A DNA stretch of 64,000 nucleotides from a virus (IMGVR_UViG_3300008107_000157:25345-89344), one strand, 5' to 3'. Shown: positions 6,842 through 62,474, counted from the stretch's first letter. The notes: generated from the letters alone by a model not told the origin. Program-made: numbers and translations.

Positions 6842-6844
6842 TTT

Positions 6845-7777: not shown

Positions 7778-7780
7778 ATA

Positions 7781-8548
7781 TTAATAATATACGTTTCCAT
7801 CAATATAGATTTGTGGATAGTTTCCATTAAATGCATAATTCCAAAGTTTGTATCTATTTGATATTTCAAAATTACAAAAGAAAGCAAAGTATTTGGTTAA
7901 TTCCCAATTTGGATTGAATATTTTATAATTTCCAAATGCTCTTCTACTATACTTAGCTTCATAATTTTTTAAAATATCTTGAACATCCAACGTTAATAAT
8001 TTTTTCTTAATTGCAAAGACAATATCATATTCAAAATCGCCTATACCTCTAGTGTTTTCATCACCAAACATACTACCACATCCTATCCAATACGGAGCAT
8101 CTACATAGGAAAGTTTATTAAGACCTGAATACACTATACTACCAACGATGTTATTGTTAAGATAGCAAGATATTTTTGCTTTCGCATCATCGTTTGTCAT
8201 ATATACATCTATAAAATCATCTAAATCTGAATCTTTTAGTTCTATTTGAACTTGCTTAACCGATTTACTTCCATCTTCTTCATTTTCAAACCAATATGTG
8301 TATTGTAAAAATACTTTATCTAACTGATTTTTAAATATAGATATGCCTGAATGCATTCCACTTCTGGAAATAATAAACGATTCGTTTTCTGTTAAAGTTT
8401 CTTTATCAATTTTTACTCTAGCAAATAAAGTAAAATCGTTTTCCATAGAATCACCTATATTAGATTCTTTAAATGATACATTTGATGGGAGTACCAAATA
8501 TAAATTTTCTGCGTTTATTTTTAAACTCATATTGTAATAGTTGAACAA
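7781..8548 (-). CDS. LamG/concanavalin-A-like domain protein
   Basis: DFTLFARVK, ISCYLNNNIVG, YWIG pattern resembles the LamG inserts of the neighbouring GT7 proteins; true start may be slightly downstream (MSLKIN). Confidence 0.45.
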   Translation of the reverse strand: MFNYYNMSLKINAENLYLVLPSNVSFKESNIGDSMENDFTLFARVKIDKETLTENESFIISRSGMHSGISIFKNQLDKVFLQYTYWFENEEDGSKSVKQVQIELKDSDLDDFIDVYMTNDDAKAKISCYLNNNIVGSIVYSGLNKLSYVDAPYWIGCGSMFGDENTRGIGDFEYDIVFAIKKKLLTLDVQDILKNYEAKYSRRAFGNYKIFNPNWELTKYFAFFCNFEISNRYKLWNYAFNGNYPQIYIDGNVYY

Positions 8549-9945: not shown

Positions 9946-9949
9946 TTTA

Positions 9950-12724: not shown

Positions 12725-12732
12725 ATTTTAAT

Positions 12733-13053
12733 TTAGACTGTTTCTATATCTTTTTTTGGTCTTACCTTTCTAACAGGCATTGGATTTGATTCGGATTGAG
12801 TTACTTCTGCTGTATCTTCATCCCCGCCATTACTTCTAGCTTTTGCTAAATTGTGAAACTCATACAAATAGTATGCAATTCTCTCACTCCAATCTTTTTT
12901 ATCAATTTCTTCAAACCAAATAGTTAACGCATCTAATGAATTTGCAATCTTTTCCATTGCTTTCACTTTTCTGGTTTCTAACACAACTAATTCTAAATTG
13001 GTAGGTTGCGGGGTTTGTTCTTGTTTTACATCTTCTTTTTTACTTGTAGCCAT
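12733..13053 (-). CDS. Hypothetical protein
   Basis: 106-aa ORF tightly packed in the operon. Confidence 0.6.
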   Translation of the reverse strand: MATSKKEDVKQEQTPQPTNLELVVLETRKVKAMEKIANSLDALTIWFEEIDKKDWSERIAYYLYEFHNLAKARSNGGDEDTAEVTQSESNPMPVRKVRPKKDIETV

Positions 13054-13057
13054 ATTA

Positions 13058-14512: not shown

Positions 14513-15369
14513 TATAAACTTATTATTTTTTTACTTAAATGATTCCAGTTTTTATAGTTTTCATAGTTTGGAGTTATACACTCCTCAAACATATACTCTT
14601 TATTAGAAATATCTACTATGAATTTATTCTCTTTTAGAGATTCATACATTTTCCTATATTCATCTGAATATGAATATGGTGTATTAATATCTGCAACTGC
14701 TTTTAATCTTCTTCTTACTGTTGAATCCCATTTAAAATGATGTACTTGTGTGAAATTTTTATCAACGGGGTATCTTAGCGGATGATTCCAACCTCTCCAC
14801 TTCCAAGTAGTTTCACCATCAATAATAGCATAATGTTGTCCGTTTGATATTTGAACATTACCCTTACATAAAGTAACTTTATTTGGACAAGCTCCACTCA
14901 TCGGTTGTCTAAAAAATCCAGCCATTGGAAACTCTTTCCAAATATTAGTATCATCATCTATTGATGGAAAATCGCCATCAATACCAATTCTATCTATAAA
15001 TCCACCAGTTACGAATTTCCATCCATTTATATCACAATCGGTTATTATTTCTGATATCGGTTTTGAATACAATTGAAATTCATCATCATCTGCTACAATC
15101 CACCAATCATTTGGGAATAGCATTTTAGTTTCATTGTATAGATTTGTAACCATTTCCCAATCAAATGGTTTGTGAGTTTTTACTTTGTGAATTTTTAATC
15201 CGAAATCGGCACAAATATCTGCTATCTCAAATTCTATTTTCTTATTTGTTTCGGAGTTTTCATATACCACAACAAATATATCGCTCACTATATCTTTATA
15301 GTGATTCAATTGATGTCGTAATGTATTGGTGCGGTGTCCTGTAACTGTTACCAATTTTGGTTTAACCAT
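14512..15369 (-). CDS. GT-A fold (family 2-like) glycosyltransferase
   Basis: WWIVADDDEF DxD motif, GGFIDR, GQH, VHHFKW. Confidence 0.65.
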   Translation of the reverse strand: MVKPKLVTVTGHRTNTLRHQLNHYKDIVSDIFVVVYENSETNKKIEFEIADICADFGLKIHKVKTHKPFDWEMVTNLYNETKMLFPNDWWIVADDDEFQLYSKPISEIITDCDINGWKFVTGGFIDRIGIDGDFPSIDDDTNIWKEFPMAGFFRQPMSGACPNKVTLCKGNVQISNGQHYAIIDGETTWKWRGWNHPLRYPVDKNFTQVHHFKWDSTVRRRLKAVADINTPYSYSDEYRKMYESLKENKFIVDISNKEYMFEECITPNYENYKNWNHLSKKIISL

Positions 15370-15394
15370 AACTTATTGTCTTCGTTTATATATA

Positions 15395-16153
15395 TTATTT
15401 TTTGGTTAATACTGTTAAACCAGTACTTGTGGTTTTAGATGTAAACATACGAAAATTTTTTAAATTTACCAAATTCCAATCATTATTTTTTTCTAATTCT
15501 TTAATAAATTTAGCAGGGCCATCAAATGGAACAAAATCTTTTTTAGCTTCTTCTGTAATAATAAATGTGTCTTGGTATTTTTGGTCTATATCGTGAATTG
15601 TAATAATTCCGTTTTCTGACATTATTTGTGAATATAGTTCAAAATCTTTTTTAACTCCCTCATATGAATGGTCACCATCTATGTGTAGATAATCAATTTT
15701 AATATCTTGTCTTACAAAATAATCATAATATGCTCTTTCGGATGTTTCTAAAATTACTTGGGGTTGAAAATGTGTTCTTAAAAAAGAATTCTCATCAGTC
15801 CAATCGGTATATCCACCTATACCATTAGCCGCATCTACGATAATTGTAGTTCCAATATCTCCCCATTCGTTTGTATTTTTTCCTTCAAAAATACCCTGCT
15901 CCCATAAATCATATCGTGATTGTGTCATAAGACGTGGTATAAATCCACCTCCCGTTCCAATACATACGCATATTTTTGCTCTAATAAATTGAATGAAAGA
16001 ATATACCAACAACCCATCGCCTAAGTGTAAATCGGTTGCACCATGTGTCCAACGATAATTTATCGGAGTATGTATCATATTACCATCTTCATTAATAATA
16101 TGATTATTAGTTAAATAATCTTTAACTATATTTAAATTGATAAGACTTTGCAT
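15395..16153 (-). CDS. Class I SAM-dependent methyltransferase (Methyltransf_24-like)
   Basis: CIGTGGG, IDYLHIDGDHSYEGVKKDF, GIITIHD. Confidence 0.8.
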   Translation of the reverse strand: MQSLINLNIVKDYLTNNHIINEDGNMIHTPINYRWTHGATDLHLGDGLLVYSFIQFIRAKICVCIGTGGGFIPRLMTQSRYDLWEQGIFEGKNTNEWGDIGTTIIVDAANGIGGYTDWTDENSFLRTHFQPQVILETSERAYYDYFVRQDIKIDYLHIDGDHSYEGVKKDFELYSQIMSENGIITIHDIDQKYQDTFIITEEAKKDFVPFDGPAKFIKELEKNNDWNLVNLKNFRMFTSKTTSTGLTVLTKK

Positions 16154-17121
16154 ATTTCAGTAACCCAGTTTTGTTTATTAATGTATTTGGTTAATCCATC
16201 TCTTAATTTAGAAAATTCTAAATTTATAGTATTGAAATCATCTTCTAATATTTTTAAATATCTTTGGTGAAATTCACCTTTACTACCTGCTCTATATTTG
16301 TAATCAATATGTTTCATCCATTCCGTATGTATGATTGGAATTTTACCATTATCGACCGCATCAAAGATTGCGTATCCAAATGGCTCTTTTTCATAACATC
16401 CGTGAAATATCTGAAAATTACTTTCAAAAAACTTTTTATGAAATCTATAATCAAATTCTATAAATCTATGATAATCTGAATTTGTATTCGAACTTTCTAA
16501 CATTCGTTTATAGTCATATTTGTTTGAAAATATAATCGATGGAATGTAATCTAAATAATGTGCGTTTTTTCTCGTTTCACACCTAGCCGCATATCCCACT
16601 TTATTGGTTATGATTCCTAAAAATGGTTTGCTTTCTTTCCATTCATAATAATTTGTAATGTTAATAACGTGTGGATAACTTTCATGTATAGTATCGTTTT
16701 CATATCCAATCCAAATTATATTATCCGAATTATCTAATATTTCCTTTTGCCATTCCCAATCTATTTTAGTCATTATGTTTTCATAATCAGAATTCAAACC
16801 CATCATATCAGGAATAAAAGCATGAACAAAGGTTGTGTGAGTTTTATGTAAATACTTTTTGATTATAGGATTTGGTTTGTAAGAATGATGTAAAAAAACT
16901 ATTTTATCACAAGACTCCAATAAGGCATCTACTTTTCCATCATTTTCAAATGTGTATAATTTATAAAAATCTTCTTTTCTATTTACTAAAGGTCTACCAT
17001 CTATTAGTAAAACAAATTTCTCTTTTATTAATGGAAATATATTTTCTATAAAATTAGACACCCATAAATCAGAACCTCCTATAACATTTTCATTATAACC
17101 CGTTGTTATGAATACTATCAT
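16132..17121 (-). CDS. GT-B fold glycosyltransferase (GT4-like)
   Basis: GGSDLWV N-terminal motif, RCETRKN, EPFGYAIFDAVDNGKIPI. Confidence 0.65.
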   Translation of the reverse strand: MIVFITTGYNENVIGGSDLWVSNFIENIFPLIKEKFVLLIDGRPLVNRKEDFYKLYTFENDGKVDALLESCDKIVFLHHSYKPNPIIKKYLHKTHTTFVHAFIPDMMGLNSDYENIMTKIDWEWQKEILDNSDNIIWIGYENDTIHESYPHVINITNYYEWKESKPFLGIITNKVGYAARCETRKNAHYLDYIPSIIFSNKYDYKRMLESSNTNSDYHRFIEFDYRFHKKFFESNFQIFHGCYEKEPFGYAIFDAVDNGKIPIIHTEWMKHIDYKYRAGSKGEFHQRYLKILEDDFNTINLEFSKLRDGLTKYINKQNWVTEICKVLSI

Positions 17122-46714: not shown

Positions 46715-48412
46715 TTATTTACTTATCAAATAATTACCCAATACCAAATAATCCATATCGGAATTTAGGAATGTCCAAATAGCTTTTTGTGGGTCATTAG
46801 TCATTGTGTGTCCTCTTAAATTAAAGGATGTATTTAATAATATTGGTGTACCACTAACTTTCTTAAATTCTTTTAATAATGTGTGATATAGTTTGTTTTG
46901 TTTTTTAGTAACAGTGTGTATTCTAGCTGAACCATCAACGTGAGTTACTGATGGAATAGATTTATAGTTAGTTACTTTAACTACTTGATTCATATATGGA
47001 ACTTCTCCTTCCGATGTAAAATATTTTGCATATTCCTCTACCACAACGGATGGTGCAAAAGGTCTAAACAATTCTCTCTTTTTTACAACTCTATTTATCC
47101 TATCTCTAACATCTGGCAAATGTGGATTAGCCAATATAGAACGATTACCCAATGCTCTTGCACCAAATTCAGTTCTACCTTGAAACCAACCAACTACTGC
47201 TCCATCATTTATAAGTTTTGCAACCTTTTGACACAACATCTTTGTATCATCGTAAAAAACTGCGTTATGCGTAACTTCTTCTTTCAGTAAAATATTTGTT
47301 AATTGTTGATTACTCCACTCTGGTCCTAAGTATGGAGATTGGTTATCGCCACCATTTACTTTTGGATTACCCAATGTATTATGCCAATGATATAAACAAG
47401 CACCAATCGCAGAACCTGCATCCGATGGTGCAAATGGAATCCATAAATTACCAACGGGTGCATGCTTTTGTATTTTTCCATTAGCAGTACCATTATATGC
47501 AGAACCTCCACCTAATACTAAATTGGATGTGTTGGATTGTTGCATACAATTGTTTGTAAAGTAATAAAAACAACTCTCATACCATTTTTGTAATGCGGCA
47601 GCTAAATCCATATGATGTTGTTCTATTTTGGATTCAGGTTCGCGTGGTTCGATTCCGATAAGATTTACCAATTTATATGTGTACATATCGGTATTTGAGT
47701 ATTGCCAAGTAAAATACTTTTGTTCAATCTCTATACTACCACGAACATCAAATTTTGAAATCTTATCAAATACGTGTTTGTATTTCATCGGGTCACCATA
47801 TGGTGCTAACCCCATTACCTTATATTCTCCATTATTTGGTTTGAATCCTAAGTATGCGGTTATAGTTGAATAAACTAACCCCAATGAGTTTGGAAATTTT
47901 AGGGATGATATTTCTTCAAATGTATTATTCTTACATCTTACTACTAATGCAGTTTCCCATTCACCAACACCATCAACTGAAATACCTACGCAATCATCGA
48001 ATGGAGATGTGTAATATGAAAAGGCTAAATGTGAATGATGATGTTTTACATATTCTAATTTGCCTGTAAAGTTTAGTTTTTTAGCTAGATACACACTTAA
48101 ATTACCTTCGGTTTCTTCAAATTCTTTTTTGAATTGTTTCCAAATCTTACGATTTTTCCACCAATGTTTACCTACAGTGTTTTTTACCCTATCGTATTTT
48201 AAGTTGGGGTCTTCATACCAACAAATAGTATCTATATCAGATATCGTTTTGTTTGAATATTGTAAAACCCATTTAATCGCTTGTTTTGGAAATGAGTTAT
48301 CATGTTTTATGCCAGATAACTTTTCTTCTTCAATAGCTGCTATTACCTTTCCGTTTTCAAATAAACAAACGGCTGAATCGTGGTAAAATGCTGAAATACC
48401 TAATGAAACCAT
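46715..48412 (-). CDS. Carbamoyltransferase (NodU/CmcH/TobZ family)
   Basis: YHDSA, EEEK, HHHSH, DGVGE, EYKVMGLAPYG, DAGSAIGA, EFGARALGNRSILA, KKRELFRPFAP, HVDGSAR, LNTSFN. Confidence 0.92.
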   Translation of the reverse strand: MVSLGISAFYHDSAVCLFENGKVIAAIEEEKLSGIKHDNSFPKQAIKWVLQYSNKTISDIDTICWYEDPNLKYDRVKNTVGKHWWKNRKIWKQFKKEFEETEGNLSVYLAKKLNFTGKLEYVKHHHSHLAFSYYTSPFDDCVGISVDGVGEWETALVVRCKNNTFEEISSLKFPNSLGLVYSTITAYLGFKPNNGEYKVMGLAPYGDPMKYKHVFDKISKFDVRGSIEIEQKYFTWQYSNTDMYTYKLVNLIGIEPREPESKIEQHHMDLAAALQKWYESCFYYFTNNCMQQSNTSNLVLGGGSAYNGTANGKIQKHAPVGNLWIPFAPSDAGSAIGACLYHWHNTLGNPKVNGGDNQSPYLGPEWSNQQLTNILLKEEVTHNAVFYDDTKMLCQKVAKLINDGAVVGWFQGRTEFGARALGNRSILANPHLPDVRDRINRVVKKRELFRPFAPSVVVEEYAKYFTSEGEVPYMNQVVKVTNYKSIPSVTHVDGSARIHTVTKKQNKLYHTLLKEFKKVSGTPILLNTSFNLRGHTMTNDPQKAIWTFLNSDMDYLVLGNYLISK

Positions 48413-50316: not shown

Positions 50317-50653
50317 CTATTTCTCCTTTTCTAATTTTAGTTCCGCTTATTTCAGCAATTTCAGTTGGTGGTTCGTGGTATATTACATCGTAACCAACGC
50401 CTCTACCATAGTTTACCGATTCGATATCAGGAATAATTGAAATCATAATTTTATCCCAATTATTTTGGAAAAATGATTCGTTTTGTAACATAGTTAAAAC
50501 TTCTTGTGCTGATTTAGGATTGTTCTCATCTTTTTGAACATCTCTAATTGCAACCCATACATTTTTTCCGTTATCCATTTGTTGGCGGATTAACCATTCG
50601 TGTCCTTTATGCCAATTCTGCCATCTCCCTATGAATAGTGCGTACTTTTTCAT
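50288..50653 (-). CDS. Nucleotidyltransferase (cytidylyltransferase-like, HxGH family)
   Basis: FIGRWQNWHKGH, YGRGVGY, ISGTKIR. Confidence 0.75.
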   Translation of the reverse strand: MKKYALFIGRWQNWHKGHEWLIRQQMDNGKNVWVAIRDVQKDENNPKSAQEVLTMLQNESFFQNNWDKIMISIIPDIESVNYGRGVGYDVIYHEPPTEIAEISGTKIRKGEIDATGKETHS

Positions 50654-51551
50654 TTATAGTATTTTTTAAATAAGGTAATATTGCTAATTCCTTTCCTTTT
50701 GCTTCAACCATAATGTCCAAATCCAACTCGTATGTATTGGGGAGGGCATTAATAAGATAGGAATGTGCTTGCGGTTTTTCTTTTGGGTTGTTTTCATGCA
50801 ATGCCTTTGATTCTGAATAATGAACTTCTTGTCTAATATCTTCTGGCCAAGTCGTTGCTGCTAACTTTAATGCCTGCTCTTCTGATAAATCGCCTGTACA
50901 AAATTGGTGATGATGGTAATCAAATACGATAGGAATGCCTGTATTTTCATGTATATACATCAAATCTCTAACTGAATACATAGATGCCTTATCATCATTC
51001 TCTATTGTAAGTCTATTTTGAACCGATTTAGAGAGTCTTTTAAAGTTTTGGATGAACCTATCCATAGCAGATTGTTTATCTCCGTAAACACCATTACAAT
51101 GGATATTAATGTTATTGTATGGAGTTTTAGATAACCCCATCATATCAAATATCTTACCATGTAGTTCTAAATCAGTAATTGCGTTAGTTACAACTGTTTC
51201 ATTTGGTGAAGTTAATACACAAAATGGACCTGGATGTGAATTTATACGCATATCCCAAAAATTTGCAAAATCACCTGCTTTTTTGAGTTCTGATTTGATT
51301 TGTTTGTAATCTTTAAGTTGGGTTAAGTCGATATGGTCGCCCCAAGGTATGATTGCGGAAGATAATCGGAAGAATTTGATACCATTTATCCTATTCCATT
51401 CTAAAATCTTAATAATATCACTTGCATTAGCTAATGCCAGTTCAGAAACGTAATCTAAACCTTTTGATTGAAAAGTTTTTTTAATCATTGTACGATTGGT
51501 AGAAACTTTCTTACCCATCGACATATTAATACAAGCGTATCCTAAGTTCAT
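50607..51551 (-). CDS. uvsE: UV damage endonuclease
   Basis: LGYACIN, FFRLSS, HPGPF, INIH, LTIENDD, VFDYHHH, VHYSES, HS, DIMVEAKGKE. Confidence 0.92.
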   Translation of the reverse strand: MNLGYACINMSMGKKVSTNRTMIKKTFQSKGLDYVSELALANASDIIKILEWNRINGIKFFRLSSAIIPWGDHIDLTQLKDYKQIKSELKKAGDFANFWDMRINSHPGPFCVLTSPNETVVTNAITDLELHGKIFDMMGLSKTPYNNINIHCNGVYGDKQSAMDRFIQNFKRLSKSVQNRLTIENDDKASMYSVRDLMYIHENTGIPIVFDYHHHQFCTGDLSEEQALKLAATTWPEDIRQEVHYSESKALHENNPKEKPQAHSYLINALPNTYELDLDIMVEAKGKELAILPYLKNTINEKVRTIHREMAELA

Positions 51552-54043: not shown

Positions 54044-54556
54044 TTAAATTAAAGTAAACTTTGATTGTTTTTTTGAAAACCAAACAATTAAAACATCTCT
54101 AAATCCCTTAGTTACTTTATCAACAGAATGCCAATCTTCACCGCCGTTAAAACAAATGTAATCACCTTTCTTATTCAATTCTACTTTTTTATCATTTACA
54201 TACATATCGCCACCATCAAAATCATCTGATAAAATTAAACTAATTGTTTTATGTGTAGTAAACCTATCTTTGTGCCTTTTTGCATAACCACCAACGCCAT
54301 AAATCAATCGGTGCATCATATATAAGTTTTCGTATGTTTCATTGAATTTATTGCATACGAATTTATTTAAAGATTCATTTTTTAAAGATAAAACAAAACT
54401 TTTTTCAGTATAAAATACCCCACCATTATCTCCTGCTATTGTAAGATATAATCCAGGATGAGCTAATTTTGTATATTTTAAATCATCACCCTCTAATACA
54501 TCGGTTTTATCTACTTCCGATTTCAAAAAATAAAATTCATCTTTGTCTAAATTCAT
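54044..54556 (-). CDS. 2OG-Fe(II) oxygenase (prolyl-hydroxylase-like)
   Basis: HKD...LSDDFDGGD...WHSV...GFRDVL; ends FTLI. Confidence 0.8.
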   Translation of the reverse strand: MNLDKDEFYFLKSEVDKTDVLEGDDLKYTKLAHPGLYLTIAGDNGGVFYTEKSFVLSLKNESLNKFVCNKFNETYENLYMMHRLIYGVGGYAKRHKDRFTTHKTISLILSDDFDGGDMYVNDKKVELNKKGDYICFNGGEDWHSVDKVTKGFRDVLIVWFSKKQSKFTLI

Positions 54557-54559
54557 ATT

Positions 54560-55624
54560 CTAAATTAAATATTTTTTTAAATCTATCAATTCATACATAT
54601 TGTGAAATACATATGGATTAGTTGCAACTTTTTTAAATTCTTTTACGAATAACGAATGCTCCGGATGATTACTATCCCCAATATCAATTAATTTAAATTG
54701 AACATCGGAAAACGTACCCCAATTTGTAATTCTACCAAAAAACACTTTTGTTTTATTTTTGAATATGGAATACATTAAATTTAAAAATGTTTCCATTTCA
54801 TTGTAATTTGATTGTTGGACCACAAAAGAACACTTAATACTCTCCAATGATTTTATAGTTGAAATGAAATTTAAATTTGAAATTAAATTATCCCAATTAC
54901 CCCCTAACCTTGTTACATTTTCGTAAGTATATTGTGCACCGGCATCTATACTTATTTCACAACTATGAACATACTTATGTATATTTGGCATACTATCCCA
55001 CATTTCTTTATTCCACAAACTGGCATTTGTATGTAGGTGGATTGATTTTAAATTTGGATATTTTGATGCATCAAATTTTCTAAGATAGTTTCTATATGAA
55101 GCAGATGCAAATGGGTCTGCTGTGCCTGAACAATATATGGTTTCTATGGAATTGGAATAAGCTTCTTCTATTTCATCTATGGTTGCATTAATACTTTTAA
55201 TCTTACCACTATCCGCAACTATCATATCTATTCTACACGATGGGCATTTAAAATTACAAGTCCTATCAAACGACATTTGAATTATCTTAGGGCCAACATC
55301 TAATATTGTATTTTTAGTTTCATAACTTTTTTGCATAACTTCAGTCAAATTATTAATATGTTTTATAGGTCCTGAAGTGTTTGTTTTATATTTTATTAAT
55401 TTTGATAAAAATGGACATTTTACTTTATCACAATATTTGTACGAACCATCCATAACCGAATTTCGTATATCAATAGCTTCGGATGAGTTCCATAATTCTT
55501 TTAATGGAACATTGTTTGGTAGTTCTTTAGTAAGCCAACTAGAGCAACACATATGGTTTTGTTTTTCCATTATCTCCAATGCTTCAAATGGAACACTACA
55601 TATGTAACTTTTTAAATCTACCAT
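54560..55624 (-). CDS. Radical SAM protein with N-terminal SPASM/twitch-like region
   Basis: CNFKCPSC; N-terminal CSVPF...CCSSW...YCDKVKC; ends KYLI. Confidence 0.8.
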   Translation of the reverse strand: MVDLKSYICSVPFEALEIMEKQNHMCCSSWLTKELPNNVPLKELWNSSEAIDIRNSVMDGSYKYCDKVKCPFLSKLIKYKTNTSGPIKHINNLTEVMQKSYETKNTILDVGPKIIQMSFDRTCNFKCPSCRIDMIVADSGKIKSINATIDEIEEAYSNSIETIYCSGTADPFASASYRNYLRKFDASKYPNLKSIHLHTNASLWNKEMWDSMPNIHKYVHSCEISIDAGAQYTYENVTRLGGNWDNLISNLNFISTIKSLESIKCSFVVQQSNYNEMETFLNLMYSIFKNKTKVFFGRITNWGTFSDVQFKLIDIGDSNHPEHSLFVKEFKKVATNPYVFHNMYELIDLKKYLI

Positions 55625-56142
55625 TATATTAAACTTTGCGTATATTCATCACGATTTCCCTTTCTTAATCTATTCTCACTATTTAAATCATAGATATCTT
55701 CATAATATGTAATTGGTATATCTAATTTTGTAGATATCATTTTTAAAGTAGTATCCCACTTTATTATATCAGAATAACACTTATCAAAGTTTGGCGTTTC
55801 ATTCCAAATATATTGCATTTCGGATGTAAACCCCTTCTTTCTATTGAAAACTGCATATGCATGGCTTTCGGCGCACTCTATTAAATTCTTTCTAGATAAT
55901 AGGATTACCTCATCAAATTTTTTTGAAAACTCTAATATCCATTCATTATAATCCAATACATCGGATGGCTTCTGAAACAAAACAATAGTTTTTACTACAA
56001 CATTATCCATCGCATCATTATATGTATATCTATTAGTACCATCAAATGGTTCAAATACTTCTTTAAGTTTTTTTGATTTGGATATATTCTTTAGCAATGA
56101 AGTGGAGCCTGTTCTTGGTAATGAAATTATTAATATTCTCAT
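55624..56142 (-). CDS. Sulfotransferase-like protein
   Basis: 5'-PSB loop SLPRTGSTSL, FEPF, LSRKN, YYEDIY; ends QSLI. Confidence 0.65.
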   Translation of the reverse strand: MRILIISLPRTGSTSLLKNISKSKKLKEVFEPFDGTNRYTYNDAMDNVVVKTIVLFQKPSDVLDYNEWILEFSKKFDEVILLSRKNLIECAESHAYAVFNRKKGFTSEMQYIWNETPNFDKCYSDIIKWDTTLKMISTKLDIPITYYEDIYDLNSENRLRKGNRDEYTQSLI

Positions 56143-56660
56143 ATCAGTTTCTTTTGATTATCTAATTTATAGTAAACAAAATCGGTATCATTCATCCATA
56201 TATTTAATGCACATCGTAATCCGATTGTCACCGGCATAACTCCGTGATAAATACTATTACCTTCAAATGTAATACCCTCTCCTATATTTAAATTAATTTT
56301 TGTATCCGCATCATTTAGTTCACAAAACGTATTAGATAACACAAATCTACCATCATCATAATCATTTGTTAAAGATATAACTGTTGTATAGTTTGAAGTT
56401 TTATCCAAATGTAAATCTAACCGCCTACCATCATAGTATCTTGTCATACTCACATTTATGTTTCGTATGTTAAATGATTCAAATTTTTGTACTTTTAAAA
56501 TTCTATCCAATACATACTCCTTAAAATTTTCATCATACACACGCCTACAATCCCAAACTTCATTTGAATCGTAATTAAAAAATTCTCCATTAGTTGTACA
56601 AAAATCTATAATATGTTTGCACTCCTTTTCATCAAAGTAAAAGTTTTTATTGTACATCAT
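56139..56660 (-). CDS. 2OG-Fe(II) oxygenase
   Basis: HLD...LTNDYDDG...YHGV...GLRCAL; ends KKLI. Confidence 0.8.
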   Translation of the reverse strand: MMYNKNFYFDEKECKHIIDFCTTNGEFFNYDSNEVWDCRRVYDENFKEYVLDRILKVQKFESFNIRNINVSMTRYYDGRRLDLHLDKTSNYTTVISLTNDYDDGRFVLSNTFCELNDADTKINLNIGEGITFEGNSIYHGVMPVTIGLRCALNIWMNDTDFVYYKLDNQKKLI

Positions 56661-57496
56661 ATTAAAAAGGAATTATCTATTCGTATGGGGGTTAGTAGAT
56701 TATTTTTAACAATAAAATCATGCATTTCATCTGCTATTATCTTATATCCATTTTTACTAGGATGCTTTCCAATTGTAGTATCTGTCCATAACATATTATC
56801 CTCCCAAACATCACTTCTATTTAATGCTCCTAATACATCTTTTAAAGTCTTTTGACCTAATCCCCAGTATCTATTTTCATTTATAAGATTTACTTTGTTT
56901 ATTGAATCTCTAATATCACCCCGAATCATTGAATCAAAAGCATCGCAAAACATATATCGTATCCCTAATTCATTAAAAATATATTGTAGATATATAATAT
57001 AGTTTTGATTTACTATATCGTAGTAATCATCTGTAAATAAATTATCGTAGTAGTACTGCCTAAAGTTTTTTTCAGCCCTTGTAAAATGTATGTTTTCATT
57101 TTTTATAGGCAAACCATAGAAATTGGTTTCTTTTAGATATTCAAAAAGATGTTCTTTTTGTTTATGTCTTTTCCCCCAAAAAACAAATGAATTTATTTCT
57201 GGAAAGAATGGTACAGCATCTCTTAAAGATGATGACCACATTATAACTACAAAATCTTTATTAGTAATAAATCCATTTCGTAATTTAAAAGATATAGCAT
57301 TAAAAATAGCGTTATTAGATGAACCACCTGCTCCTAAATTTTCTACTTCTATATTAAGTAGTTTAGATAGTTGCGTAGGCCATGCGTACTTATGTCGTAT
57401 ATTTGTTCTTTCTATTGGAACATCTGTAGTATATTCCTCTTCTAAATCACCACCAACTCCTTCAGTCCAACTATCTCCAAATGTAAATAACTTCAT
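56657..57496 (-). CDS. SGNH/GDSL-like protein
   Basis: FTFGDSWTEG, NLGAGGSSN, MWSSSLR, KHPSKNGY; ends SFLI. Confidence 0.65.
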   Translation of the reverse strand: MKLFTFGDSWTEGVGGDLEEEYTTDVPIERTNIRHKYAWPTQLSKLLNIEVENLGAGGSSNNAIFNAISFKLRNGFITNKDFVVIMWSSSLRDAVPFFPEINSFVFWGKRHKQKEHLFEYLKETNFYGLPIKNENIHFTRAEKNFRQYYYDNLFTDDYYDIVNQNYIIYLQYIFNELGIRYMFCDAFDSMIRGDIRDSINKVNLINENRYWGLGQKTLKDVLGALNRSDVWEDNMLWTDTTIGKHPSKNGYKIIADEMHDFIVKNNLLTPIRIDNSFLI

Positions 57497-57511
57497 AAAG
57501 CATGATTAAAA

Positions 57512-57649
57512 TTAAAGGTGCTTTTCTTTAATTTTATTTACTACTTCTTGAAAAGCAGCTGCTACTTTAACTTTTACATCTGTTGAAATTGGAGTTACAT
57601 TTGCTTTTATAATTTGAGCAGGTCTTTCTACTCTTACACTTTCTGCCAT
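57512..57649 (-). CDS. 45-aa peptide immediately downstream of the ATP-grasp-Hint gene (not in ORF track)
   Basis: MAESVRVERPAQIIKANVTPISTDVKVKVAAAFQEVVNKIKEKHL; A-rich leader; fills the intergenic gap. Confidence 0.65.
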   Translation of the reverse strand: MAESVRVERPAQIIKANVTPISTDVKVKVAAAFQEVVNKIKEKHL

Positions 57650-57673
57650 ATTATTTTAGTTTTTTAATTGTTA

Positions 57674-59173
57674 TTAAATCTTTTGCAATCTACTACCACC
57701 ACCACCACCACATCCTGGACAATAATTACTATTACACCAGTGACCACAATAGTTCCAAGGACACCAACAACTGTTATGTTGTACACCAAAATCACCATCA
57801 CCAAAATCAACTAAGAAAAGGTCGGATGATTCAAAATCCAAACTATAAATAGTTTTATTAGCGTGTTCCATTTCCAATCCAGCGATAGCGATGGTTGTTA
57901 GTTCATTAGTAGTAGAATCCGTAATAACTAACTTATCACCCACATACATCTTATTAACATTTTCAAATCTAGTAGCTAAAGAACCAGATTGCTCTATATA
58001 ATATTTTGCAGAAGGAGCATCTGTCCAACTTCTACCATCTTCCAATGTTATACGAATGTATATTGTATCAACTGAAGCGGATATAATATGTTGTAGTACC
58101 GACCCGGTTTGTATTAATGTTGAATTATCTTGCGATATTGTACTATTCCATCCAAATGTTTCGATTTTATCCTGTTCAAATTTAGCAGCATGATTATCGT
58201 TGAAATCTACATAATCAATAGAACGAACATAATCGCCTAATTGAATAGTATCTATATCCATTAACGTTCCATCAAATTTCAAAATAACACTATCATCATC
58301 GGTATGGTAATCATTTTTTGCAAAGTTACCTAATTCTTTTGTAATGTATTTATATCTGCTTTTTTGATTTAGTTTATTTGTACCTGATACAAACTCATCA
58401 GGTGTAAATGTTAATGGAATTATGGTTGATTGTCTATATCCGCCTAAATTTATTACATCTAAATTTCCACCATAAATTATATCAATGCTTCTTATAATTG
58501 AATATCTACCATTTACAACATTATCTTCTGAAAAAATAAACTCCTGAACTAAATGATTTGTTTCTACACTATCTTTAATTGTGGATAATTCGGTAGTATC
58601 GGAAGCCCTATATAATGCAGGATAATCCATTATTTCATATTGTGGATATCTGGCTTTAACTATTACGTTTGGCGTTTCCGTTGTTTCATAATCAACATCA
58701 TTTAAGCTTTCTAAACTTAAACTATCCGATGTAAAAAATGTTTTTGGTATATAATTAGAACCACTCATTAATGAAAAGAACTCAAATTTATCGGCACAAT
58801 ACGTTTCATCTACTAAAGCAGTTGTATCAAATGATTGTCTTAAAATAAACTTATTAACTGCATCTTCTATATAAGGTACAGTTACAGAGTTATAAGGTAC
58901 TGCGTAATCTTGGAAAGTTATTCCATTTGCTAAACAATTTTCTTCTAATAATTTTTTAAATTTAAATTGTTCATTTAGTGGAGTATATGCCGATGTTTCT
59001 GTCCATATAAAATGGAATTCAGTTATTCCATTCTCATTTAAAACATTAAATAAAGCATCGTAATCTAAATAATCAGCACCTGTATTGTAAATTGTGGTAT
59101 TGGTATTTATTTCTAAAAACTTTACGGAATTACCATACTCCAATAAATCGCTACCAATTATAGTTCCTTTCAT
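57674..59173 (-). CDS. Circularly permuted ATP-grasp domain + Hint (intein-like) domain + C-terminal six-Cys peptide
   Basis: N-terminal GSDLL...FLEINTN, ADKF, IPKT, VIVKARYP, LVQEFI; Hint blocks DGTLMDIDTIQLGDYV, ITLEDG, MYVGDKL, IYSLDFESSDLFLV...QHN; then SCWCPWNYCGHWCNSNYCPGCGGGGGSRLQKI. Confidence 0.7.
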   Translation of the reverse strand: MKGTIIGSDLLEYGNSVKFLEINTNTTIYNTGADYLDYDALFNVLNENGITEFHFIWTETSAYTPLNEQFKFKKLLEENCLANGITFQDYAVPYNSVTVPYIEDAVNKFILRQSFDTTALVDETYCADKFEFFSLMSGSNYIPKTFFTSDSLSLESLNDVDYETTETPNVIVKARYPQYEIMDYPALYRASDTTELSTIKDSVETNHLVQEFIFSEDNVVNGRYSIIRSIDIIYGGNLDVINLGGYRQSTIIPLTFTPDEFVSGTNKLNQKSRYKYITKELGNFAKNDYHTDDDSVILKFDGTLMDIDTIQLGDYVRSIDYVDFNDNHAAKFEQDKIETFGWNSTISQDNSTLIQTGSVLQHIISASVDTIYIRITLEDGRSWTDAPSAKYYIEQSGSLATRFENVNKMYVGDKLVITDSTTNELTTIAIAGLEMEHANKTIYSLDFESSDLFLVDFGDGDFGVQHNSCWCPWNYCGHWCNSNYCPGCGGGGGSRLQKI

Positions 59174-59205
59174 AATTAATTTTTATTTTTTTAGTATTAT
59201 CACCT

Positions 59206-59213
59206 ATAAATAT
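59206..59213 (-). promoter_or_regulatory. Putative late promoter motif GATATTTAT upstream of the ATP-grasp-Hint gene
   Basis: Intergenic; same motif as before structural genes. Confidence 0.55.
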
Positions 59214-59222
59214 CGGTTTGAA

Positions 59223-59510
59223 TTAAATTAGTGAATTTTTCTTTTTTATATCCAATGACTTTATATATTGTGAATCTATATTTTCCCACTTTCCTATTGG
59301 ACATGGACTAAAATTTTGAGAAAATACTTTTTTATTTAAGGGGCATCCGCATTTTCCACAAACTGCACTCCACTCTACTCCTTTCAATACCTCTTTTCTA
59401 TGTTCGCATCCTAAACAAATAGATAATCTTTTTTTAGCTAATTCTTCTTGAATAGCAGTTGGATTAAATGATGCTTTCCAAGCTTTAAATATTTCTTTAT
59501 AATCAATCAT
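59223..59510 (-). CDS. Small Cys-rich metal-binding protein (DUF6171-like)
   Basis: RLSICLGC...CGKCGCPL...CPIGKW; ends NSLI. Confidence 0.65.
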   Translation of the reverse strand: MIDYKEIFKAWKASFNPTAIQEELAKKRLSICLGCEHRKEVLKGVEWSAVCGKCGCPLNKKVFSQNFSPCPIGKWENIDSQYIKSLDIKKKNSLI

Positions 59511-59511
59511 A

Positions 59512-60240
59512 CTATATTAAACTTTTTTCTTTTTTTGGTAAATCGTAATAATCATAGATATTATTATATCGTTTTATAAACGTATCATTCAATATTAAAT
59601 TTGTTTTAAAATGATTACTACTATTTGATTTTTCCAATTTAAACTCTCTACCTAACTTTTCAGAAACCCAATTTTCTAACTCATATAATTTATCAAATTC
59701 AAACCATATAATATTTGGGTCATGGTTGTGGTATTCTGATATTGGTGTGAACAATATATAAAGCATTTTTCTAACTGTATCATTCATATAAGGCCTTATT
59801 CCATTTCTATTTACAAACTCCTTAATAACATCTACTCTCGTTTGCTCACTTATTAAATCATCTTTAGTATAAAATAAAATATCATCTAATTTTAGATTCT
59901 CTAATCTAAGATTTAATAATGGGGAGTTTGCGGAATTAGATAAGTCAACCACATGCTTCCATAATGATATAAACCTATCGTGTCTATTTCTTCTTACACC
60001 AATTATATCATATTCATAACCAAATTTTTTATACAAATCTGTAATTTTTTCATGCCCATGCACAATCGTATCAGCCAATTCCTCATTGGACATATTCATA
60101 TCAATAATACTACTCCACTTTTTATAAAACATTTCATCATAATGTTCGATATTTATATTGTTTCGTAAACATGTTATATAAAATGATGTAGATGCGCATC
60201 TTGGCAAACTTAAAGATATAAATTTATTATCAACTAACAT
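59512..60240 (-). CDS. Sulfotransferase-family protein
   Basis: FISLPRCASTS, HGHE, RRNRHDRFISLW, KSNSS; ends KKEKSLI. Confidence 0.7.
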   Translation of the reverse strand: MLVDNKFISLSLPRCASTSFYITCLRNNINIEHYDEMFYKKWSSIIDMNMSNEELADTIVHGHEKITDLYKKFGYEYDIIGVRRNRHDRFISLWKHVVDLSNSANSPLLNLRLENLKLDDILFYTKDDLISEQTRVDVIKEFVNRNGIRPYMNDTVRKMLYILFTPISEYHNHDPNIIWFEFDKLYELENWVSEKLGREFKLEKSNSSNHFKTNLILNDTFIKRYNNIYDYYDLPKKEKSLI

Positions 60241-60896
60241 TATATTAAACTTTTTTCTTTTTTAATAAACGTAAATCCTACATTACCCGCCATAACAATT
60301 CTATCTATTGTAGATTTGGGAGCATTTTGAGGTGAGTGTGGCATATCGGCTTCCATTATTATCAAATCATCTTCTTCCGGCCTTATCCAATATTCTTTAT
60401 CATTTTTGCCTTTAAAATATAACACACCATCTTCCCCATTCATCACATCTGGCATTTGAATATAGTAAACATATGTATAATGTGGTACAAACAATTTCAT
60501 ATCCTTATTTATATCAGTATGAATATGATACTTATCAATACCTTTTAAATCTTTGTGTTTAAATTGTATTTGTACCGGGTTTTGTGAACGAACTACATTA
60601 ACCCACGCATCTGTATTTATTTTATTGTATGTTATATTTTTTTCATTGTATAGTTTTTTACATTCATTAACACCGATTTGAACTATTTCATCTAATTTTG
60701 TTTCTACAATAAAATCACCAGTAAAATCTAAATTACCATTCCATTCGCTTTTATAAGCAAAGCCATCTGTTTTTACATCCGGCATCGAATCTATAATACT
60801 ATATGCTTCTTTTAAAAAGAATTGTTTATCTTCTAATCGATTTAATTTTGTTTTCCAAATGTAAGTCGAATCATCGTAGTATAGTTTTTCAATCAT
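60240..60896 (-). CDS. Putative 2OG-Fe(II) oxygenase/cupin-fold protein
   Basis: AWVN, YHIH, YVYYIQMP, GVLYF, PHSP, RIVMAGN; ends KKEKSLI. Confidence 0.7.
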   Translation of the reverse strand: MIEKLYYDDSTYIWKTKLNRLEDKQFFLKEAYSIIDSMPDVKTDGFAYKSEWNGNLDFTGDFIVETKLDEIVQIGVNECKKLYNEKNITYNKINTDAWVNVVRSQNPVQIQFKHKDLKGIDKYHIHTDINKDMKLFVPHYTYVYYIQMPDVMNGEDGVLYFKGKNDKEYWIRPEEDDLIIMEADMPHSPQNAPKSTIDRIVMAGNVGFTFIKKEKSLI

Positions 60897-60914
60897 AATA
60901 TGGTTTTTTCTTTT

Positions 60915-61484
60915 TCATATTAAACTCTTTTGCTTTATACAACTTGGCCAAACATTTAATGAATATCGTATGCCGGCAGTAACGTTATCTACAGAATGAA
61001 CTATATTAGAATCGAATATGAAAACACTGCCCTGCTTTTTTTGAATAGTATATTCTTCATCATTTATTATATACTTAACATATCCATCATCATACTCATC
61101 GTTTAATTGGATTATATATGTAATAGTAGCCCCATACATTATCTCATGCGAATCAGAATGCCAATCTAAGAAATCACCCGCCGAATATCGATTGAATGAA
61201 TATTTTGGAATAGAGTTATACTTTATTCCGTTGTATGGATTTAATTCATTTGATATATTGATTATTTTGTTAGATACCGATTTTAATAAATCACAATTTA
61301 AGGTATCATCTACAAAATAACATCCCATACGTTTATTACCAGCGTAATCTACGTTTGAATCAACAACTTTACCATTAACAATACGTGATGATTTCATTGC
61401 TTCCAATCCTATCGAATTACCCAATTCTATAATCGATTCACATTCATAGTTTGTTAGAAAATCATCTATATAAGTTGTAAACAT
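60915..61484 (-). CDS. 2OG-Fe(II) oxygenase (prolyl-hydroxylase-like)
   Basis: DDFLTNYEC, WHSD, LNDEYDDG, VHSV, GIRYSL; ends QKSLI. Confidence 0.82.
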   Translation of the reverse strand: MFTTYIDDFLTNYECESIIELGNSIGLEAMKSSRIVNGKVVDSNVDYAGNKRMGCYFVDDTLNCDLLKSVSNKIINISNELNPYNGIKYNSIPKYSFNRYSAGDFLDWHSDSHEIMYGATITYIIQLNDEYDDGYVKYIINDEEYTIQKKQGSVFIFDSNIVHSVDNVTAGIRYSLNVWPSCIKQKSLI

Positions 61485-61490
61485 ATTAAA

Positions 61491-61793
61491 TTATAATTTA
61501 TTTGAAATCGAATGTAGCTTAGCACATTCTTCATACATTTCTAATGCGGTTAATCTACCCATCAACCACTTACCCATAGATTTAAAATCCTCTCTTTTAA
61601 GAGTTATATATGCGGGCATAGATTTGTATTTGACCAGTATTATCTCCTTACACTTCCTATTAGACTTCCAATTATCTAACTTATCAACCAATTCCGAAAG
61701 ATTTTGATTAGACAGATTAGTTTTTGGAAGATACGTTTTCCATTCTAAAGATATCCAACCTTTTTCTAACTTATCTAAGACAGTAATATTCAT
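61491..61793 (-). CDS. Hypothetical protein
   Basis: 100-aa ORF with its own promoter; C-terminal EMYEECAKL is UVR-like. Confidence 0.55.
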   Translation of the reverse strand: MNITVLDKLEKGWISLEWKTYLPKTNLSNQNLSELVDKLDNWKSNRKCKEIILVKYKSMPAYITLKREDFKSMGKWLMGRLTALEMYEECAKLHSISNKL

Positions 61794-61798
61794 AACCT

Positions 61799-61830
61799 AC
61801 AATATACGATAATAATTTTAAATTTCCAAA
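61799..61830 (-). promoter_or_regulatory. Bacteroidota-type sigma70 promoter (variant -7 box)
   Basis: TTTG-N20-TATATTGT. Confidence 0.6.
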
Positions 61831-61832
61831 TA

Positions 61833-62474
61833 TTATATGAGCTTTATATTCGTATTTGATTTAATCATTCTGATAAACTCATTTGCTAATTGTATATGCC
61901 CTACTTCACCATAGTGACCATTAACTATTTCTTCATTTGTTTCTTTGGTTATATTTGTTACATTCCCTATGTAGTTTTTACTTACGATTCTATCCAACGG
62001 CGACCAATGTATTATGAGATTATTAGGAAATGCAATATTCAATAACTTTATCCAACTATGAACCTCACTAGCATATTTTGTTTTTGTTCTATTAATTAAT
62101 ACCTCTTCCAAAGTAGTATTCGATACATCTTCTAAATTCCTTATGTTTCCATCGAACATTGGTATTATTGGTTTCCAATTATCCCATTTATCAACCAAAC
62201 GGAATCGAGTACAAGATGACCATCCTATTATAATAACATCATTTGAATTAATAAGATTGGCTGAATCACATACGGATTGGAATATACTATAATTATCAGA
62301 ACCGCCTCTACCTAAATTAACTAATTCCATTCCCATCTCATCTGAAATTATTTCACCATATACTCTGGGTATGTAACCTTTCCAAGCAACATACTTATCA
62401 ACCCACAATGCTCCGTTTGTAGTGTTAAGTGATTCAGTAAAACTATCTCCATATGTCCAAAGTGTTTTTTTCAT
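61833..62474 (-). CDS. SGNH/GDSL-like protein
   Basis: TYGDSFTE, NLGRGGSDN, IGWSSCTR, NGHYGEVGH; ends IKLI. Confidence 0.65.
   Translation of the reverse strand: MKKTLWTYGDSFTESLNTTNGALWVDKYVAWKGYIPRVYGEIISDEMGMELVNLGRGGSDNYSIFQSVCDSANLINSNDVIIIGWSSCTRFRLVDKWDNWKPIIPMFDGNIRNLEDVSNTTLEEVLINRTKTKYASEVHSWIKLLNIAFPNNLIIHWSPLDRIVSKNYIGNVTNITKETNEEIVNGHYGEVGHIQLANEFIRMIKSNTNIKLI

Follow-up and report, generated by a model that had tools for sequence, protein, structure and literature searches.

The peroxisomal PTS1 is a C-terminal client tag with a dedicated receptor, and class I PDZ ligands have the form X-[S/T]-X-hydrophobic-COOH. The beta-clamp-binding motif, QL[SD]LF, has a Gln-Leu start and an aromatic end, and the MuA-like class of ClpX signals consists of basic residues followed by an apolar end. 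The client tripeptide of the CIA targeting complex is reported to be [LIM]-[DES]-[WF]-COO- (PMC10245660). With respect to gene content, tandem arrays of 2OG dioxygenase and Trp-halogenase genes have been described for Syn9 (gp41-gp61; Iyer et al. 2010, PMC2938197).

The window, by which we mean the whole 64,000-nucleotide stretch of DNA analyzed here, derives from an uncultured freshwater T4-like phage, many relatives of which bear the same C-terminal tail in matching islands. The minus strand of positions 54044-62474 holds 13 ORFs in unbroken succession, 10 of which terminate in Leu-Ile, and the ten endings reported by a first-pass annotation of this DNA are all exact in our translations. The features are as follows:

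54044..54556, minus strand: 2OG-Fe(II) oxygenase, family OxA, 170 aa; tail SKFTLI (codons 54047-54064); Pfam PF13640, E 7.2e-7
54560..55624, minus strand: radical SAM enzyme, 354 aa; tail LKKYLI; Pfam PF04055, E 9.7e-5, under the curated cut-off
55624..56142, minus strand: 172-aa protein with a P-loop-like N-terminus, family ST1; tail YTQSLI
56139..56660, minus strand: 2OG-Fe(II) oxygenase, family OxB, 173 aa; tail NQKKLI; Pfam PF13640, E 2.2e-6
56657..57496, minus strand: SGNH/GDSL-type hydrolase (SGNH1), 279 aa; tail DNSFLI; Pfam PF00657, exactly at the cut-off
57512..57649, minus strand: untagged 45-aa ORF (small partner) directly 3' of the ligase-Hint gene, ending ...KHL; no Pfam match
57674..59173, minus strand: untagged 499-aa ligase-Hint-peptide protein (hub/substrate), with ATP-grasp, Hint and Cys-rich peptide, ending ...LQKI
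59223..59510, minus strand: Cys-rich Zn-ribbon-like protein, 95 aa; tail KKNSLI; phrog_13558 (function unknown), E 3.5e-9
59512..60240, minus strand: sulfotransferase-like protein (a lead), family ST2, 242 aa; tail KKEKSLI; no Pfam match
60240..60896, minus strand: 2OG-Fe(II) oxygenase-like protein, family OxC, 218 aa; tail KKEKSLI; Pfam PF13640, E 6.2e-4, below the cut-off
60915..61484, minus strand: 2OG-Fe(II) oxygenase, family OxB, 189 aa; tail KQKSLI; Pfam PF13640, E 9e-12
61491..61793, minus strand: untagged hypothetical protein, 100 aa, ending ...NKL; no Pfam or PHROG match
61833..62474, minus strand: SGNH-like protein, family SGNH2, 213 aa; tail TNIKLI; N-terminal GDS motif in the translation

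Leu-Ile endings are found in 10/13 ORFs of this cluster versus 2/83 other ORFs of the 89-kb contig (Fisher P = 1.6e-9); inside the proteins, the LI dipeptide has a frequency of 0.0061. Chance is excluded as the source of the excess. The fold labels of the first-pass annotation hold in part: 2OG-FeII_Oxy_3 is present in four genes, three above the cut-off and one (60240..60896) below it, the latter also matching phrog_274 (E 1.4e-6). The radical SAM match stays below its cut-off (23 bits versus 29.5), with a CxxxCxxC motif visible in the translation, and the one GDSL match lies exactly at the cut-off. The Pfam scan gave no match for the two proteins called sulfotransferases, the second SGNH protein or the Cys-rich protein; for the last of these, the ESM Atlas offers no more than a weak lead to DUF6171. 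For 55624..56142, which has no PHROG match either, the label sulfotransferase-like comes from the first-pass annotation; for 59512..60240 it is a lead with a single source, the ESM Atlas neighbor cluster, which has Sulfotransfer_2 in 59% of members (score 0.96).

The tail recurs in the relatives of every tagged gene. An [LI][LI] ending is found in 12/12 OxA members from related loci and in 30/30 relatives of the radical SAM enzyme, and the tail is present in ST1 (26/26), OxB (41/41), SGNH1 (25/26), Zn-ribbon-like (20/20), ST2 (17/17), OxC (16/16) and SGNH2 (8/11) proteins. Database relatives of 60915-61484 end in [LIMV][IL] in 119/120 cases and carry Ser/Thr at -3 in 118/120. Counted without preselection, Ile or Leu is terminal in 96-100% of the members of the families. 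The untagged 61491..61793 is not a conserved island member, and its family clustering yields only 2 members.

The consensus of the tail is K/N-x-x-K/N-[S/T/K/N]-[L/I]-[I/L], or approximately Lys-x-x-Lys-Ser/Thr-Leu-Ile, with a free carboxyl end, and across relatives the final two residues vary only inside [LIVMF][LI]. The LI tag as originally described is thus real but too narrow, the conserved feature being [LIVMF][LI]-COOH after Lys/Asn and often Ser/Thr. Residue and codon statistics were taken from 312 unique 3' ends pre-selected for the motif, the family counts being the unselected ones. In this selected set, the last residue is Ile in 227 and Leu in 85; position -3 holds Ser/Thr in 153, Lys in 57 and Asn in 41; and Lys/Asn predominate at -5 and -4, with Lys at -4 in 159/312 and at -5 in 118/312. 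Phe is rare at -2 (15/312) and absent at -1, despite TTT being AT-rich, and at none of the last 10 positions does Gly rank with the most frequent residues.

The CIA tripeptide and PTS1 resemble the tail in combining a very short, free C-terminal motif on unrelated client enzymes, enough in principle to direct them, with one reader, which for the tail is a proposed one. The tail differs from the CIA tripeptide in being composed of basic residues, Ser/Thr and two aliphatics, and from both systems in its context, a bacteriophage in which the clients are enzymes of a single gene island. The CIA TCR tripeptide itself was ruled out, as Ile or Leu comes last in 312/312 of the selected ends, Trp/Phe are never terminal and Asp, Glu or Ser never occupies -2. 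The tail shares with PDZ ligands a hydrophobic free C-terminus. A Ser/Thr two residues earlier is found in about half of the tails (in 118/120 for the 60915-61484 family), and Lys, Asn or Tyr takes its place in the other half. Like beta-clamp tails and the ClpX "C-motif 2", the tail places basic or polar residues before an apolar extreme C-terminus in diverse proteins; it is found on one island's enzymes only, with no link to proteolysis or replication seen. The beta-clamp motif was rejected, since the tail has no Gln-Leu start, is mainly Lys/Asn at -5/-4 and never has Phe at -1.

A by-product of DNA or translation, be it the AT-rich surroundings of the following gene's initiation site, a stop-start overlap or a cassette recombination junction, could in principle give such endings. 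Many tailed genes do overlap the following start (ATATGA, TAATG), gene order within the island is reshuffled among relatives, hydrophobic endings outside the island are more frequent in coupled than in spaced genes (15/156 versus 3/127, P = 0.014), and the last codon ATA is over-used (160/227 Ile versus 46% genome-wide). The coupling effect and the ATA excess indicate that a small DNA-level contribution exists. Against this reading, 156/380 tailed genes sit >5 nt from the next start, as do four in the window, with gaps of 38 nt (54044), 49 nt (59223), 39 nt (61833) and 18 nt (60915), in agreement with the earlier claim of several uncoupled genes. The Zn-ribbon family always lies upstream of a spacer (the 49 nt at 59223), yet all of its members keep the tail. 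Furthermore, the densely packed glycan gene run at 1275-17121 has LI in only 1/17 ORFs, as the first-pass annotation had noted for its control. The ten tagged genes vary synonymously, as also claimed (Leu TTA x7, CTG, CTA and CTC; Ile ATA x7 and ATT x3), and use all three stops (TAA x5, TGA x3, TAG x2), and the 312 ends use every codon available for Leu (6), Ile (3), Ser (6) and Thr (4), with TAA, TGA and TAG in 198, 91 and 23 cases. Ser at the tail switches between the AGY and TCN codon families, and third-codon-position diversity at -2/-1 (0.45/0.39) is similar to that of other tail positions. The by-product reading is highly improbable and already largely refuted. Codon and stop variety, uncoupled genes and conserved families support well the earlier claim of selection on the peptide rather than on the DNA, and make the tail a short linear motif under protein-level selection.

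BLAST clustering of the 951 unique tailed proteins from 133 islands gave 43 sequence clusters. Among them are 2OG oxygenases, radical SAM enzymes of two types, Trp halogenase, methyltransferases of the SET and other kinds, and proteins of the sulfotransferase-like, SGNH and Zn-ribbon groups, a diversity that gives firm support to the proposal of a common label across unrelated enzymes. Pfam matches among them comprise 2OG families, Radical_SAM with B12-binding, FkbM and CmcI methyltransferases, GT4/GT9, Trp_halogenase (E 1.9e-88) and SET (E 7.5e-12). All tailed clusters surround one untagged ligase-Hint-peptide protein, and the tail frequency follows the gene offset from it, with 83-88% at +1 to +4, 53-64% at -1 to -5, and 3-19% at 12-15 genes away on either side. 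Homologous enzymes of phages that have no ligase-Hint gene do not carry the tail; it was not found in homologues at 10 loci of other phage lineages, and a distant 2OG class ends in GPxF[KR] instead. The tail marks the island rather than the fold.

Two island families match PHROGs of Syn9-type genes (PHROG 274 and 2954), and T4-like core genes are present in the complete relative G001. The Syn9 array and the island have in common a tandem arrangement, several distinct 2OG families and Trp halogenases, T4-like phages as carriers, and a predicted role in peptide modification. The Syn9 array differs in that 0/18 of its genes have a shared tail, and no ligase-Hint gene was found in GenBank phages.

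The hub protein consists of a GspS/YgiC-like ATP-grasp, a Hint domain with an invariant His-Asn at its end, and a 32-aa core peptide with six Cys and one Lys (57674-57772 including the stop). Its AlphaFold model (pLDDT 79.7) resembles, by Foldseek, YjfC/YgiC/GspS in the N-terminal part and hedgehog/intein/BIL folds in the Hint part, and a PDB profile search returned the KlbA intein (E 7.5e-5). H466 and N467 are among the invariant residues, and the ATP-grasp domain retains approximately 25 invariant residues although clades share only 24-32% identity. The core peptide and the small ORF, unlike the ligase domain, diverge freely: cores are 26-49 aa, Cys-rich and hypervariable beyond the invariant His-Asn, and an ORF of 19-60 aa begins <=70 nt from the ligase-Hint stop in 103/103 islands. 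None of these small ORFs is tailed, nor are 22 ligase-Hint relatives (0/22), so the substrate gene and small partner, which the first-pass annotation had set apart as exceptions, are indeed general ones, present and untagged in all islands examined. A hypervariable Cys-rich core amid radical SAM enzymes, halogenase, oxygenases and methyltransferases is reminiscent of RiPP clusters, and the two systems alike need a device that brings many enzymes to one peptide. In the island, however, the common recognition element would be on the enzymes and not on the substrate, whose "leader" would be the 467-aa ligase-Hint protein.

We infer that the tail serves for docking: it would connect the exchangeable peptide-tailoring enzymes of a hypervariable phage island to one shared reader, probably the ligase domain. 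We give this reading a probability of about 0.5. The evidence leans toward docking onto something island-specific because the tail tracks the ligase-Hint gene by position and is absent from homologues without that gene. The flexible tail would dock each enzyme noncovalently on a single common reader, so that any enzyme gaining it could act on the island's substrate, putatively the hypervariable Cys-rich peptide, which the Hint domain may release from the ligase-Hint protein. The likeliest reader would be the conserved GspS-like ATP-grasp domain, since this enzyme class binds the free C-terminal carboxylate of a peptide. The constancy of the tail fits that of the ligase domain, while core and small ORF vary. 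We found no description of the tail in the literature, and it looks like an undescribed docking label.

Searches of G000 (41% complete) and its complete 238-kb relative G001 gave no matches to PDZ domains (PF13180, PF00595; control genomes were positive), PqqD/RRE (PF05402; none in 60 Pfam-scanned proteins either) or an encapsulin shell (PF04454), and the phage encodes no TPR_16, ClpP or S41 peptidase. The phage thus encodes no canonical reader of C-terminal motifs, which counts for docking. In a model of 60915-61484 (pLDDT 92), the final strand spans residues 181-184 and the terminal five residues are coil; such a predicted exposed tail would also count for docking.

The first-pass annotation had offered docking or sorting to a scaffold, compartment or capsid, or a mark for a protease, among which the evidence so far leans toward docking. 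Apolar C-termini are generally destabilizing in bacteria, and the tail, with Lys at -4/-5 before two aliphatics and a modeled coil, resembles the MuA-like ClpX class, a resemblance only; it could hand the enzymes over to a protease or unfoldase of the host (ClpXP-type "C-motif 2", tail-specific protease) and shorten their lifetime. We regard this as unlikely, since the tail is limited to one island's enzymes and not to phage proteins at large, a degradation signal needs neither Ser/Thr at -3 nor strict Leu/Ile over Phe, Val or Ala, and the phage has neither ClpP nor an S41 peptidase. It is more doubtful still that the tail sorts enzymes to a place (capsid interior, compartment or membrane) instead of to a substrate protein. 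Encapsulins do have C-terminal cargo peptides and capsid-like shells, polybasic-plus-hydrophobic ends can bind membranes, and the phage is a large T4-like virus; but there is no encapsulin shell gene, the tail lacks the Gly/Ser-Leu-type cargo consensus, 2OG-, SAM- and FAD-dependent enzymes have no obvious use within a capsid, and 5-7 residues with a charged carboxylate end make a poor membrane anchor.

The cores point to a further reading. Exactly one Lys is found in 89/101 unique cores and none lacks it (0/101), at a Lys frequency of 0.035 versus a background of 0.084; in the window's clade, 116/120 cores have a single Lys, at -2 in 109. In addition, 34/101 cores have no Asp or Glu, which implies that the partner carboxylate must in many cases be supplied from outside the core. 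The ATP-grasp could then activate the C-terminal carboxylate of a tagged enzyme and join it to this Lys by an isopeptide bond, making the tail the acyl substrate of the ligase in a phage-encoded, ubiquitin/Pup-like conjugation system. The GspS/YgiC/YjfC likeness is to a carboxylate-amine ligase type, GspS itself activating the C-terminal Gly carboxylate of glutathione and coupling an amine; the one-Lys rule would supply a conserved acceptor, and the tail always requires a free C-terminal end. We nevertheless consider conjugation improbable: it would oddly consume the catalyst, a single Lys could hold only one enzyme at a time, no isopeptidase was identified, and the occurrence in some islands of genes for SET-domain proteins (Lys methyltransferases) suggests that the Lys is itself a tailoring target. 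Amidation of the C-terminus of the core itself, or the use of a small molecule, would be just as conceivable for the ligase. If true, the chemistry would tether interchangeable tailoring enzymes to the substrate or attach the peptide to proteins.

No clean covariation was found between tail residues and ligase-Hint clade; the terminal Leu versus Ile share varies by island (chi-square P = 8e-4, with related loci and small counts per island). Tagged neighbors are missing around two to three of the ligase-Hint genes (L164, L166 and partly L162). Tail-like ends also exist outside the island, at 3631-4512 (...KLL) and 11297-12724 (...VLI) in the window, and in the complete 238-kb relative one radical SAM paralogue and several SGNH paralogues from other parts of the genome likewise end in the tail.

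On the 89,344-bp virus contig (~30% G+C), where the minus strand carries all 86 of the 86 non-overlapping ORFs of at least 60 aa, we observe Leu-Ile endings on 10 of 13 consecutive genes at 54044-62474 (-), with every terminal hexapeptide reading exactly as the first-pass annotation had reported it. The codon variation described there is also present (Leu as TTA seven times and as CTG, CTA and CTC; Ile as ATA seven times and ATT three times), as is the use of all three stops in the ten tailed genes (TAA five, TGA three, TAG two), and spacers of 18 to 49 nt follow 4 of the 10, in agreement with the statement that several of them lack downstream coupling. Its control stands too, with an LI ending in just 1 of 17 ORFs at 1275-17121. 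Over the whole contig, LI endings occur in 10/13 ORFs of the cluster versus 2/83 elsewhere (Fisher p = 1.6e-9), and the LI dipeptide has a frequency of 0.0061 at internal positions.

Relatives were collected from IMG/VR with the radical SAM protein as query, which gave 31 loci (56 to 97% identity). Among the 546 ORFs of these loci, 125 end in LI, 62 in II, 31 in LL and 12 in IL. With the proteins of related loci grouped into families before counting, an [LIVMF][LI] ending is kept in the 2OG-Fe(II) oxygenase families OxA (12/12), OxB (41/41) and OxC (16/16), in the radical SAM enzyme (30/30), in the sulfotransferase-like families ST1 (26/26) and ST2 (17/17), in the SGNH/GDSL-type family SGNH1 (25/26) and in the Cys-rich Zn-ribbon protein (20/20). 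The 499-aa ligase-Hint protein has the tail ending in 0 of 22 copies. For the protein encoded at 60915-61484, an [LIMV][IL] end is found in 119 and Ser or Thr at position -3 (counted from the C-terminus) in 118 of the 120 relatives listed of 233 database matches. Its AlphaFold model (pLDDT 92) places the final strand at residues 181 to 184 and the last five residues in coil. The consensus of the tail is K/N-x-x-K/N-[S/T/K/N]-[L/I]-[I/L]-COOH.

Further scans brought the set to 223 loci and 133 different ligase-Hint proteins, whose genes are surrounded by 984 tailed genes (951 unique, falling into 43 BLAST clusters). Tail frequency depends on the gene offset from the ligase-Hint gene, with 83 to 88% at +1 to +4, 53 to 64% at -1 to -5 and 3 to 19% at 12 to 15 genes away on either side. 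Among others, Pfam assigns tailed proteins to several families of 2OG oxygenase, to radical SAM and B12-radical SAM enzymes, and to a Trp halogenase (E 1.9e-88), the FkbM and CmcI methyltransferases, GDSL hydrolases and a fusion of GT4 and GT9; in the islands of some relatives it also matches two SET-domain genes:

L063:7131-7496, small tailed SET-domain (protein Lys methyltransferase) gene, Pfam E 7.5e-12
L112:16777-17151, small tailed SET-domain (protein Lys methyltransferase) gene, Pfam E 4.1e-10

The tailed enzymes named by Pfam are classic peptide- or protein-tailoring types; many tailed clusters had no match in the Pfam search. We interpret the tail as a docking label, by which any enzyme bearing it would gain access to the peptide of its island (the ligase-Hint gene and the tailed enzyme genes around it). 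For two or three ligase-Hint genes, none of the neighbours is tagged. One 211-kb IMG/VR contig (L164 and L212) carries two ligase-Hint genes, one within a tagged island and a second whose neighbours are untagged, an arrangement that would fit recruitment of enzymes in trans. Outside the island, paralogues with tail-like ends are also seen: in the complete 238-kb relative (G001) these are three SGNH genes and another radical SAM gene, and in the window they lie at 3631-4512 and 11297-12724.

The first-pass annotation had further proposed that selection acts on the peptide rather than on the DNA, and the orthologues bear this out, since synonymous codons and stops vary among them with the tail ending kept. 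Leu is encoded by all six of its codons and Ile by all three, Ser at -3 is written with AGY codons in some orthologues and with TCN codons in others, and the stops over 312 unique 3' ends are TAA (198), TGA (91) and TAG (23). Third-codon-position diversity in the last two codons (0.45 and 0.39) is similar to that of neighbouring codons. Phe, with a TTT codon that equals TTA in AT content, occurs 15 times at -2 and never at -1, in counts that are circular because the 312 ends were selected by motif. The same circularity applies to amino-acid entropies and to residue counts at -1 and -2 generally, and the evidence from these motif-selected sets is limited to the codon and third-position figures. 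The tail is conserved as a peptide.

The alternative of an origin at the DNA level, through the stop-start context of coupled genes, makes a small contribution. In G001 outside the island, two hydrophobic end residues are found in 15/156 coupled genes versus 3/127 spaced ones (p = 0.014). Among the tailed ends, ATA is over-used where Ile is the last codon. Across the loci, 156 of 380 tailed genes are separated from the following start by more than 5 nt, 111 of these 156 by more than 20 nt, and the Zn-ribbon genes, always followed by a spacer, nonetheless keep the tail. The tail frequency next to the ligase-Hint gene is beyond the reach of the coupled-gene baseline of ~10%, and the tail is no coupling artefact.

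A regular-expression search matched the tail in 59 of 150 representatives, a few of the matches being chance endings on fragments. At ten loci from other phage lineages without a ligase-Hint gene, the homologues do not have the tail; in cultured-phage homologues the alignment ends at residue 179 in 40/40 of the matches listed, and a distant 2OG class has a GPxF[KR] ending instead. Cultured relatives gave no DNA match, and 50,697 GenBank phage records held no match for the radical SAM or the ligase-Hint protein. The dioxygenase/halogenase array of phage Syn9, reported by Iyer et al. 2010 (PMC2938197), differs from the island in that 0/18 of its proteins have the tail. An excerpt of a pelagimyophage paper (PMC7029224) describes large hypervariable islands and radical SAM cassettes and does not mention the tail. 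C-terminal client tags, of which the CIA tripeptide (PMC10245660) is an example, are the nearest known systems. A literature search of one library turned up no description of the tail or of a ligase-Hint-peptide layout.

The untagged ligase-Hint protein (57674-59173, minus strand) begins with an ATP-grasp ligase of the glutathionylspermidine-synthetase type (residues ~1-290; Foldseek matches to YjfC, YgiC and GspS, E 1.4e-6 to 2.9e-5), in which an E-x-N-T motif at residues 21-24 is invariant and ~25 residues are invariant despite 24 to 32% overall identity among clades. The Hint domain that follows has Foldseek matches to hedgehog, inteins and BIL domains and matched the KlbA intein in a PDB profile search (E 7.5e-5). 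It ends in an invariant His-Asn, after which comes a disordered, hypervariable, Cys-rich peptide. Since no nucleophile is conserved after the His-Asn and no invariant residue lies near the N-terminal junction, the Hint domain is expected to perform C-terminal cleavage only. Two short products belong to this part of the island:

57674-57772, minus strand, core peptide, follows the invariant His-Asn
57512-57649, minus strand, small untagged ORF of 45 aa, downstream of the ligase-Hint gene

An ORF of 19 to 60 aa lies at most 70 nt past the ligase-Hint gene in 103/103 islands and bears the tail in none; its sequence types differ strongly between clades, and both it and the core peptide diverge beyond recognition among clades. 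The ligase-Hint protein falls into 564 clusters, all 'hypothetical' or unnamed and none with a Pfam domain. The tail points to a large unannotated system.

The composition of the core bears on a bolder and less likely reading, in which the ligase would join the tail carboxylate to a single core Lys. Of 101 unique cores, 89 have exactly one Lys and all have at least one, at a Lys frequency depleted relative to background (0.035 versus 0.084); in the clade of the window, 116/120 cores have one Lys, at position -2 in 109. This one-Lys rule fits such joining, as does the frequent absence of acidic residues (34/101 cores have neither Asp nor Glu). The number of core Cys is 6 or 8 in 100/101. In P0364, P0370, P0380, P0388 and L072:611-2548, the core is followed by an extra domain of ~70 aa that starts ...GGK-SD-x-x-x-K and that we take to resemble the self-cleaving C-terminal chaperone domain of phage tail spikes; if it is of this type, cleavage there would leave Lys as the last residue.

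If the tail is a docking label, its reader must share the conservation that the tail itself shows in all clades. Ligases of the GspS type bind the free C-terminal carboxylate of a peptide. From this property, the invariant residues of the ligase domain and the obligatory free carboxyl end of the tail, we infer that the ligase domain is the best candidate reader. Complex predictions of the ligase-Hint protein with the 189-aa oxygenase scored 0.15, 0.43 and 0.04, where the mark is 0.32, and carry no weight for or against binding. Per island, between 0 and 0.83 of the tails end in Leu, with high values in the L063/L152/L069 clade, in small counts from related loci. No clean co-variation of tail residues with ligase-Hint clade was found to mark reader residues, and the small per-island counts and relatedness of the loci preclude naming one. 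The search for canonical readers in the phage comprised seven models (PDZ_2, PDZ, PqqD, Linocin_M18, CLP_protease, TPR_16 and Peptidase_S41), none of which matched the contig record of this phage (41% complete) or the complete G001. With no PDZ, PqqD/RRE, encapsulin shell, ClpP, TPR_16 or S41 peptidase found there, a reader supplied by the host is possible.

If the docking reading is true, five to seven residues would form a minimal plug-in rule by which a phage could bring unrelated enzymes by the dozen (43 sequence clusters to date), interchangeably, to a single hypervariable peptide, and the free shuffling of island gene content would be explained. Synthetic biology would then also gain a tiny, transferable tag with which to bring enzymes to a scaffold, and the identity of its reader would open the function of the whole island to test.

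With respect to the phages themselves, G001 carries T4-like terminase, portal, prohead protease, capsid and sheath genes. Near-identical DNA, with at least 74% of the sampled 31-mers of the island, is present in sequencing runs from 11 studies, nearly all labelled as freshwater or lake metagenomes (one of the studies possibly the source of this DNA). No RNA run is listed among these, and the system is present in abundant freshwater phages. A contig scan of genomes found one 3.7-kb contig (L072, VHCC01000082.1), binned in a Pelagibacterales MAG, that bears the same island with a tailed oxygenase, the ligase-Hint gene and a tailed Zn-ribbon gene. Its binning gives a weak hint of Pelagibacterales as host and could be an artefact. 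Elsewhere in the window, all on the minus strand, 11297-12724 encodes a fusion of a GT7 galactosyltransferase-like and a Laminin_G_3/ConA-like lectin domain that ends in ...VLI, 50607-51551 a UvdE-type UV damage endonuclease (Pfam PF03851, E 8.5e-69), and 46715-48412 a carbamoyltransferase with ~30% identity to Nol-like genes of cyanomyophages and of Pelagibacter phage HTVC008M.
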